Shown one piece after another: positions 16,489 to 17,654 of a DNA stretch of 64,000 bases; within the stretch, counting starts at the first letter, position 1, and every line of letters begins with the position of its first letter. The notes beneath the pieces are model-generated. The model was given only the letters and a program-made list of their open reading frames with translations. It was not told the origin of the DNA and made no database searches. The position numbers were made by a program, and so were the translations under genes. Location: the NCBI RefSeq assembly GCF_024502345.1, contig NZ_JALDNN010000001.1. One strand, written 5' to 3'. The stretch is from Escherichia coli (lineage in GTDB: Bacteria > Pseudomonadota > Gammaproteobacteria > Enterobacterales > Enterobacteriaceae).

Positions 16489-16881
16489 TTATGCTGATTC
16501 GTCAATATCGAGACGGGCGAGGAAATTGCGAATTCCTTCACGTGACAAAAATTGCGCGACTTTTTCCTGCTCAATGTCTGTCATATTATCTATCGCGTTG
16601 ATGATTTGTCGATACGCCGGGGCGCGTGCTCCAGGAGCGTATTTAGCAATTCTCTCTTCAGCTTCCATCAACATTGGTGTGTTATGGAACGCAGGCGTGT
16701 TCTGAATAAACTCGCAAACTTGCGTATCGACCAGAATAAGTCTGGCACGACCGCCTTTCACGCCGGGAAATTTTTCCGTTTTCCAGCCTGTTTCTCTGAT
16801 CCAACGGTTAACAGTTTGTTTAGCCACACCGAGGCATTCAGCCAGTTCTTCGGTGGTCATTTTATTGCGTAATCTTTTCAT
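16489..16881 (-). CDS. yfeD: putative HTH DNA-binding protein YfeD
   Basis: 130-aa ORF; N-terminal HTH-like segment (TTEELAECLGVAKQTVNRWIRETGW); paralogous to the adjacent yfeC. Confidence 0.85.
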   Translation of the reverse strand: MKRLRNKMTTEELAECLGVAKQTVNRWIRETGWKTEKFPGVKGGRARLILVDTQVCEFIQNTPAFHNTPMLMEAEERIAKYAPGARAPAYRQIINAIDNMTDIEQEKVAQFLSREGIRNFLARLDIDESA

Positions 16882-16882
16882 A

Positions 16883-17227
16883 TTATTTGCTATCGCGAAT
16901 CCCTAAGCGTTGTAACAATCCGATAATCCCTTCCCGCAGAAGCAAGGATGTAAACTGTTTTTGTTCAACTGGCGTCATCTCTTTCGCCAGTGTCACCAGC
17001 AATACTTCAAGCGGCGCATCACCAGAAAGGGCAGGCGCTTCTCCCTGACCTTCTGGACGTTCAGCATTACGAATATATTCACGAACCTGTTCATTGACGT
17101 GAACCAGTCGGGCTTTGCCACCCTGGACGCCTGGTTTTGGTGACGTCGTCCAGCCTTCCTTGCGTACCCATTTATTAATGGTCTGGCGGCTATAGCCGGT
17201 CAGTCTGGCAAGTTCATCTGGCGTCAT
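16883..17227 (-). CDS. yfeC: putative HTH DNA-binding protein YfeC
   Basis: Start MTPDELARLTGYSRQTINKWVRKEGW; the ORF track begins 5 codons upstream at 17242. Clear paralog of yfeD. Confidence 0.82.
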   Translation of the reverse strand: MTPDELARLTGYSRQTINKWVRKEGWTTSPKPGVQGGKARLVHVNEQVREYIRNAERPEGQGEAPALSGDAPLEVLLVTLAKEMTPVEQKQFTSLLLREGIIGLLQRLGIRDSK

Positions 17228-17462
17228 CCTCTCCTTGAACATAACAATTCCCTGAATGTATGTGGGTCTATTAGTAGTTCATTTTATAGCACCACTTTAC
17301 AGGAAACCGTGACATGAATAACTACTGAATGCGAGCGGTTTTCCAAAATTGTTCATTTGCCTGATTTTTCAGCGATTGAAACTACACGCTGCAATTTGCC
17401 GTTGACACATTCGGGCGGAATTCATATGATGCCGCCCGTCAACTCGACAAGCTTTACGTGAC

Positions 17463-17538
17463 GGGGCTATAGCTCAGCTGGGAGAGCGCTTGCATGGCAT
17501 GCAAGAGGTCAGCGGTTCGATCCCGCTTAGCTCCACCA
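17463..17538 (+). tRNA. alaW: tRNA-Ala (anticodon GGC), copy 1
   Basis: GGGGCTATAGCTCAGCTGGGAGAGCGCTTGCATGGCATGCAAGAGGTCAGCGGTTCGATCCCGCTTAGCTCCACCA with the G3:U70 alanine identity pair; copy symbols assigned by position. Confidence 0.95.
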
Positions 17539-17566
17539 AATTTTGCACCCAGCAAATTTGGTACGT

Positions 17567-17642
17567 AAACGCATCGTGGGGCTATAGCTCAGCTGGGAGA
17601 GCGCTTGCATGGCATGCAAGAGGTCAGCGGTTCGATCCCGCT
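17567..17642 (+). tRNA. alaX: tRNA-Ala (anticodon GGC), copy 2
   Basis: Identical 76-nt sequence 28 bp downstream of copy 1. Confidence 0.95.
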
Positions 17643-17654
17643 TAGCTCCACCAA

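Follow-up and report, generated by a model that had tools for sequence, protein, structure and literature searches.

How did two small adjacent genes for DNA-binding proteins come to occupy one fixed site on the chromosome, and do their products now act as one regulator or as two? The question is raised by yfeC and yfeD, which lie side by side next to gltX in a stretch of 64,000 nucleotides of Escherichia coli DNA (contig NZ_JALDNN010000001.1; "the window" below refers to the whole of this stretch). The answer favored here, and regarded as probable, is that they encode two related DNA-binding regulators that arose by tandem duplication of an ancestral yfeC-like gene beside gltX, presumably form an operon, and have separate targets. 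The genes, their common family, and their binding to DNA are already on record, and in these respects the finding is correct but ordinary. What is new is that the duplication is dated and polarized, that interpretations of the pair as a toxin-antitoxin module or as recently acquired DNA are rejected, and that a longer start for YfeC is supported.

Paralogy and Identity of the Two Genes

YfeC and YfeD are paralogs over their whole length, aligning by BLASTP with 37% identity over 126 columns (E 5e-27). The alignment reproduces the common helix-turn-helix (HTH) motif, ELA..G..QT.N.W.R..GW...PGV.GG.ARL, which the original prediction, made from the DNA letters alone, had cited along with a related C-terminal region in concluding that the genes are a tandem duplication. 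The similarity is not confined to the HTH segment: the C-terminal 43–45 residues alone give an ungapped alignment with 37% identity (E 3e-9), and comparing these C-terminal domains by ortholog profiles gives a match with 99% probability (E 3e-18). Both proteins also match PF07037 (YfeC-like, formerly DUF1323) over its full length, 1–122 of 122, with 210.3 bits for YfeD and 173.0 bits for YfeC against a curated cut-off of 22.9 bits.

A 17-nt direct repeat within yfeC (16963–16979 and 17212–17228) encodes MTPVEQ and MTPDEL. The idea drawn from this repeat, that the C-terminal domain of YfeC is a degenerate copy of the HTH, was rejected, as N- and C-terminal profiles match with 6% probability over 13 columns; the MTP motif is probably a common helix-start sequence.

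The open reading frame (ORF) list and tRNA scan place both genes exactly where they had been predicted, between gltX and two tRNA-Ala(GGC) genes, in the following order.

15022–16437, plus strand: gltX
16489–16881, minus strand: yfeD coding sequence, 130 amino acids, from the ORF list; its product has a longer linker than YfeC
16883–17242, minus strand: yfeC coding sequence, 119 amino acids, from the ORF list
17463–17538, plus strand: alaW, tRNA-Ala(GGC), from ARAGORN and Rfam
17578–17653, plus strand: alaX, tRNA-Ala(GGC), from ARAGORN and Rfam
17801 onward: pdeA

The alaW and alaX genes, which were enclosed in the interval first described, are neighbors and lie outside the paralog pair. RefSeq naming of near-identical genomes over the same stretch gives yfeD, yfeC, gltX, pdeA, and two tRNA-Ala genes. 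The window represents the E. coli chromosome in the orientation opposite to K-12, with 98.9% DNA identity over 14164–20078 and the same neighboring genes. YfeC is identical to the K-12 protein with five extra N-terminal residues, and YfeD differs from its K-12 counterpart at two residues. By sequence and position, the genes are orthologous to b2398 (yfeC) and b2399 (yfeD); as these two are themselves the PF07037 members of that name, the pair is no different in kind from the known one. An unusual yfeC allele in the window was considered and rejected: a figure of 91% that had suggested it came from a species representative (L003), and YfeC here has the K-12 sequence.

Distribution and Evolutionary History

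The 1.8-kb region is found at a coverage of at least 80% in 5355 of 5426 complete E. coli genomes. In a wider survey using one genome per species, the best 80 of 285 confirmed loci were retained, all from Enterobacteriaceae, and the yfeC-yfeD tandem is present in every one of the 80. The gltX gene lies directly downstream of the pair in 72 of these loci, the exceptions being mostly Kosakonia, and pdeA is usually upstream; a tRNA-Ala gene precedes yfeC in 78, and two tRNA-Ala(GGC) genes are present in 68. Measured from the first tRNA-Ala gene at its 5' end, the yfeC ATG is 217–222 nt away in 77 of 78 species. Of 79 pairs (one of the 80 loci is incomplete), 51 have a spacing of 1 nt between the yfeC stop and the yfeD start, and 76 have a spacing between -4 and +9 nt. 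Mean ortholog identity is 74% for YfeC, the first copy, over 79 species and 54% for YfeD, the second, compared with 38% between the copies.

The PF07037-type family is very small, with 194 cluster representatives at E 0.001 among 1.84 billion proteins, many of them fragments or matches to the HTH only. Named members beyond the core set come from Cedecea, Cronobacter, Franconibacter, Scandinavium, Chimaeribacter, Pantoea, Erwinia, and Tatumella. In Enterobacter sp. BIGb0383 (L049, 4001–5138), three tandem copies are present, one of YfeC type and two of YfeD type.

The history of the pair can be read from lineages that have one gene where the Enterobacteriaceae have two. In Pantoea, Erwinia, Tatumella, and Chimaeribacter, the syntenic site holds just one yfeC-like gene, which runs convergently toward gltX. 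In a neighbor-joining, midpoint-rooted tree to which 11 single-copy genes were added, the 78 YfeC and 78 YfeD sequences form pure clades and the single-copy genes fall outside both, giving the arrangement (single-copy genes, (YfeC clade, YfeD clade)). This arrangement, together with the presence of one gene in Erwiniaceae and Chimaeribacter and of two in all 80 Enterobacteriaceae loci, bears out the predicted tandem duplication, and its simplest reading is a single duplication after the split from the Erwiniaceae, followed by asymmetric divergence. The alternative that one copy was lost in all outgroups is less economical and does not fit the tree.

The divergence of the two copies has been unequal. 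Mean tree distance from the single-copy outgroup is 0.77 to YfeC and 1.17 to YfeD, and the outgroup genes share 52–56% identity with the YfeC clade and 38–44% with the YfeD clade. YfeC is the slower-evolving, more ancestral-like copy, and the divergence of YfeD has been about 1.5 times as fast. Purifying selection acts on both genes, as shown by ratios of nonsynonymous to synonymous divergence (dN/dS) of 0.07–0.20; against Citrobacter and Salmonella, dN of yfeD is about twice that of yfeC, with a dN/dS for yfeD of 0.08–0.16. Because YfeD is faster diverging yet under purifying selection, the likeliest outcome of the duplication is two regulators with separate target sets, not one redundant pair.

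Several observations touch on the evolution of YfeD within this framework. The second copies of four Atlantibacter-like loci (L056, L062, L067, and L076) and of L075 show 47–53% identity to YfeC and 34–38% to E. coli YfeD, and with outgroups in the tree they still belong to the YfeD clade. In the comparison of E. coli with Cronobacter by Wolf and Koonin (2012), yfeD was among the non-best-hit cases. At the gene junction, dS changes abruptly in comparisons with the same three genomes (L002–L004), from 0.25–0.33 in yfeC to 0.10–0.13 in yfeD, a pattern suggesting that, in some lineages of Escherichia, a recombination breakpoint lies between yfeC and yfeD.

Predicted Protein Structure and Family Membership

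The AlphaFold model of YfeC (73-sequence alignment; mean predicted local distance difference test score of 80) has a strand-helix-helix-strand-strand-helix arrangement in residues 1–60, a disordered segment at 61–77, and two helices at 78–88 and 91–112. The YfeD half of a model in which both proteins were linked has the same layout with a longer linker. The prediction for each protein is a winged helix of the Mu-repressor/excisionase/MerR-like type at the N terminus, joined by a flexible linker to a helical hairpin. The hairpin carries the motif M-T-x-x-E-Q...L-x-R-E-G-I-x-G-L-L-x-R-L-G-I and is the second most conserved part of both paralogs.

The best fold matches are Pukovnik Xis (4j2n) and BldC (6amk), over 51–52 residues at 2.3–2.5 Å, with pSK1 Par and Mu repressor domains also among the best. 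The winged helix superimposes on domains of the Mu repressor (1qpm) and the Mu transposase I-alpha domain (1tns), which share its topology and have the highest identity among the structural matches, 24–29%; by phmmer, YfeC matches 1tns with E 0.01, having GW...GV.GGKA in common, and 1qpm with E 1.1. Orthologs from Salmonella and Chimaeribacter carry the UniRef label "HTH Mu-type domain-containing," but the corresponding Pfam model PF02316 is not reached, with YfeC at 14.6 bits (E 0.041) against a cut-off of 23.3 and YfeD giving no match. Unlike the Mu proteins, YfeC and YfeD have neither a transposase nor a Mu repressor C-terminal region and no prophage context, and their C-terminal hairpin is specific to the family.

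Similar distinctions separate the pair from the other families to which it might be assigned. The excisionase model TIGR01764 gives 25.3 bits against a cut-off of 28.8, and the pair does not qualify as an excisionase, for which an adjacent integrase gene or attachment site would also be expected; YfeD narrowly exceeds the cut-off of the generic HTH_17 model only (29.6 against 27 bits). Unlike excisionases and BldC, YfeC and YfeD have no integrase partner or recombination context and carry the additional linker and helical hairpin. Scores for MerR_1 are also below the cut-off (12.1 and 12.6 against 21.6 bits), and the contiguous long coiled coil and effector site of MerR proteins are not seen in either model, so that "MerR family," as yfeD is labeled in RefSeq, is at best a superfamily-level description. 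The LysR label given to both proteins in Ishihama's table found no support. Although the fold class is clear, family membership extends to PF07037 only.

The YfeC Start Codon and Transcription Signals

The signals around the two genes are as follows.

16455–16483, both strands: two-way terminator hairpin with an 11-bp stem and T runs on each strand, common to the convergent gltX and yfeD
16879–16885, minus strand: junction TAA-T-ATG, one base between the yfeC stop and the yfeD start, read from the sequence
17249–17253, minus strand: Shine-Dalgarno-like AGGGA, 6 nt ahead of the ATG of yfeC (17242), read from the sequence
17283–17291, minus strand: candidate extended -10 element TGCTATAAA for yfeC-yfeD, a conserved block in an alignment of 80 intergenic regions
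17402–17430, plus strand: alaW-alaX promoter TTGACA-17 nt-TATGAT, 11 of 12 consensus positions, divergent from yfeC

In the K-12 annotation, YfeC begins at an internal Met and has 114 amino acids, five fewer than the conserved 119-residue form (the difference corresponds to 17228–17242 of the window). Among 28 species, M1, K3, E4, and R5 of the longer form are invariant and the DNA changes there are synonymous; in Erwiniaceae and Chimaeribacter orthologs, the internal Met is replaced by L or I. The longer start is also supported by the position of AGGGA ahead of its ATG, in a region conserved as AGG(G/A)AA in the intergenic alignment. Conservation thus favors initiation at 17242, as far as can be judged from sequence.

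The tight junction between the genes is consistent with a single operon and with translational coupling, co-transcription being read from this arrangement. The putative promoter role of the TGCTATAAA element is qualified by the lack of a matching -35 and by a promoter consensus scan that did not call the site. The yfeC-alaW intergenic region is 220 nt long (17243–17462), and its conserved blocks are the alaW promoter, whose -35, -10, and following G+C-rich stretch show conservation across 80 species, and the TGCTATAAA block; the middle of the region may be an upstream activating sequence for the tRNA promoter. The terminator hairpin was also recovered in an inverted-repeat search. A search for RNA elements in Rfam gave the tRNA genes and, next to lysV, an RtT element, and nothing else.

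Published Binding and Expression Data

The original prediction also described the function of the genes as unknown, a statement that is out of date in that ChIP-exo data (chromatin immunoprecipitation with exonuclease treatment) exist for both proteins and RNA sequencing for YfeC (PMC8464067). RefSeq names K-12 YfeC a DNA-binding transcriptional dual regulator. In the ChIP-exo study of Gao et al. (2021), 50 site-table entries were obtained for YfeC and 43 for YfeD in vivo, with one common peak, at ispB/sfsB/rplU, which appears twice in each table (PMC8464067). The strongest sites include chaA, mukF, and ispB/sfsB. The YfeC motif was described as TTC-rich inverted repeats with 6-nt spacing, and 40% of YfeC peaks are intragenic (PMC8464067). 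Deletion of yfeC changed the expression of 205 genes; 16 of the 20 YfeC-bound genes with changed expression were repressed by it, YfeC acting mainly as a repressor (PMC8464067). In the same deletion, yfeD rose by 4.3 log2 units, or about 20-fold (PMC8464067 supplement). A guess at the published motif, TTC-N6-GAA, is absent from 16489–17800 and is not enriched in the window, where 25 copies were found against 19.5 expected.

One YfeC peak was assigned to yfeC itself, at 2516052–2516085 in older K-12 coordinates (PMC8464067). Around 17631–17664 of the window, about 400 nt from the yfeC start, lies part of a very highly transcribed tRNA gene. By a coordinate conversion that takes the offset to be 1978 bp, the peak would correspond to this interval, at the 3' end of alaX and the start of its terminator, and not to the yfeC promoter. 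Because it lies on so highly transcribed a gene, the peak may be non-specific.

The same peak coordinates also recur for unrelated factors in these data, as at mdtL (3889534–3889558) for YfeC and YdhB, and sites at uxaC, treR, rplC, and uxaB likewise recur across several other factors (PMC8464067 Dataset S4). The region at ispB common to YfeC, YfeD, and YciT may belong to this recurrent class. Highly expressed genes are represented in the ChIP-exo lists as well, including rpmH, rpmB, rpsU, rplU, lpp, and the alaX end.

Phenotypes of yfeC deletion have been reported in several settings. In E. coli K1, the deletion lowered small-intestine colonization and lethality in neonatal rats (PMC5847654). 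Expression of the enterocyte effacement locus (LEE) in enterohemorrhagic E. coli (EHEC) was unaffected according to a published report, and another source describes more extracellular DNA.

Competing Explanations

The explanation regarded as probable, of two regulators from one duplication, would involve the following steps. An ancestral single yfeC-like gene next to gltX would have been duplicated in tandem in the Enterobacteriaceae lineage. The two genes would most likely be co-transcribed from a promoter divergent to that of alaW-alaX, with translational coupling between them. Each protein would bind DNA through its predicted N-terminal winged helix, and the C-terminal hairpin, following the flexible linker, would most likely mediate self-association.

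Several points weigh against this explanation. The C-terminal hairpin found no structural match, so that any role assigned to the hairpin is a guess. The rise of yfeD in the yfeC deletion could fit autorepression of a common operon or, equally, an effect of the deletion construct. As peaks recur between factors and highly expressed genes are listed, part of the ChIP-exo lists may be non-specific. Further, Xis, BldC, and the Mu proteins bind direct-repeat arrays head to tail and not as symmetric dimers, and because these are the closest structural relatives of YfeC and YfeD, the published picture of an inverted repeat bound by a homodimer may be wrong.

This last point leads to one of two explanations that accept the pair as DNA-binding proteins but differ in how they act, namely that YfeC and YfeD are architectural proteins that coat direct-repeat arrays head to tail in the manner of BldC and Xis. 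The best fold matches, to Xis, BldC, pSK1 Par, and Mu repressor domains, are to proteins that bind cooperatively to repeated sites, and the large intragenic share of YfeC peaks and the broad, functionally mixed site lists would suit such a role. The published YfeC motif, an inverted repeat with a 6-nt spacer, is the sole conflict of its kind; in addition, some 50 sites is the number expected of a local regulator, and BldC and Xis have no C-terminal hairpin. On balance, array coating is improbable. It is decidedly improbable that YfeC and YfeD form an obligate heterodimer through their homologous C-terminal hairpins and are effectively one regulator. Although most species have the genes coupled through a junction of 1 nt, the homologous C-terminal domains are well conserved in both proteins, and one strong ChIP-exo peak is common (ispB/sfsB), the site lists are otherwise almost disjoint (50 and 43 entries) and one protein suffices in single-copy species. 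A linked YfeC-YfeD model, built with a 30-residue artificial linker and a species-paired alignment of 28 sequences and without a homodimer control, reached a predicted template modeling score of 0.28 with no higher confidence in the hairpin, which is a weak test.

Two further explanations would make the pair mobile DNA or a toxin-antitoxin module. The original prediction had hinted at acquired DNA from the position between tRNA clusters, and on the first of these explanations the pair would be a remnant of a recently acquired phage or transposon regulatory or excision module. In keeping with this are the Mu repressor/transposase and excisionase type of the N-terminal domain, weak PHROG matches (phrog_4151, E 9e-9; phrog_310, a transposase, E 2e-4), a G+C content slightly below that of gltX (0.46–0.49 across the pair, about 0.50–0.55 in gltX), and the confinement of the family to a few Enterobacterales lineages. 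The distribution, however, is that of a core pair in E. coli, with a position fixed in all 80 Enterobacteriaceae species and in Erwiniaceae; the flanks hold no integrase, transposase, or repeats, a tblastn search of 50,697 phage records found no match, 13 plasmid matches are to megabase-scale or otherwise chromosome-like records, and the viral structure library returned generic HTH matches only. Recent acquisition is therefore very improbable and the hint is not upheld. A DNA-binding domain of Mu-like type may still have been domesticated long ago, which would be a separate and far earlier event. The toxin-antitoxin interpretation has a longer history, the pair having been predicted "with high confidence" as such a module by RASTA-Bacteria in 2007 (PMC2374986), a prediction repeated in a transposon-sequencing paper of 2018 (PMC5847654). 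The two genes are indeed small and tightly coupled, and one or both have an HTH of a kind common in antitoxins. That they constitute a type II module is nonetheless scarcely credible: the products are paralogs alike in their DNA-binding architecture, each matching PF07037 over its full length, no toxin domain was found in Pfam, NCBIfam, or PADLOC beyond sub-threshold matches to the HTH region, and the NCBIfam match to an MqsA-family antitoxin is far below the cut-off (12.2 against 61.8 bits). The locus is also core and syntenic, outgroups hold one gene alone, and the yfeC deletion is viable with normal growth in LB (PMC5847654) despite the strong rise in yfeD.

What is variable around these tRNA clusters is the DNA past lysV. 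The yfeR-lysV interval (13749–14335) holds a FlxA-like ORF at 13749–14090 (minus strand, PF14282) and the RtT RNA element at 14210–14335 (minus strand); in K-12, the same spot is occupied by xapR-xapB-xapA-yfeN. Of 5426 complete E. coli genomes, 1307 have this junction in the form found in the window.

Implications for Regulator Evolution

A more ambitious reading would make the duplicated pair a small regulatory circuit tied to its fixed site beside translation genes. In it, the yfeC-yfeD operon would be under repression by YfeC, accounting for the 20-fold rise of yfeD when yfeC is lost, and the rapidly evolving YfeD would act on YfeC through the common C-terminal hairpin, tuning or opposing it. 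The targets would include genes of the translation apparatus (rpmH, rpmB, rpsU, rplU, and the alaX end), and the module would be a Mu-like repressor domain, domesticated long ago and restricted to Enterobacteriaceae and Erwiniaceae. Taken jointly, these propositions amount to a long shot.

For the favored explanation, of two regulators derived from one tandem duplication, the significance beyond tidying of annotation is small: the labels toxin-antitoxin, "MerR family," and LysR fail at family level. Practical interest is added by the reported gut-colonization phenotype of yfeC in E. coli K1, and the pair can be used as a compact natural case of the duplication and divergence of a regulator.

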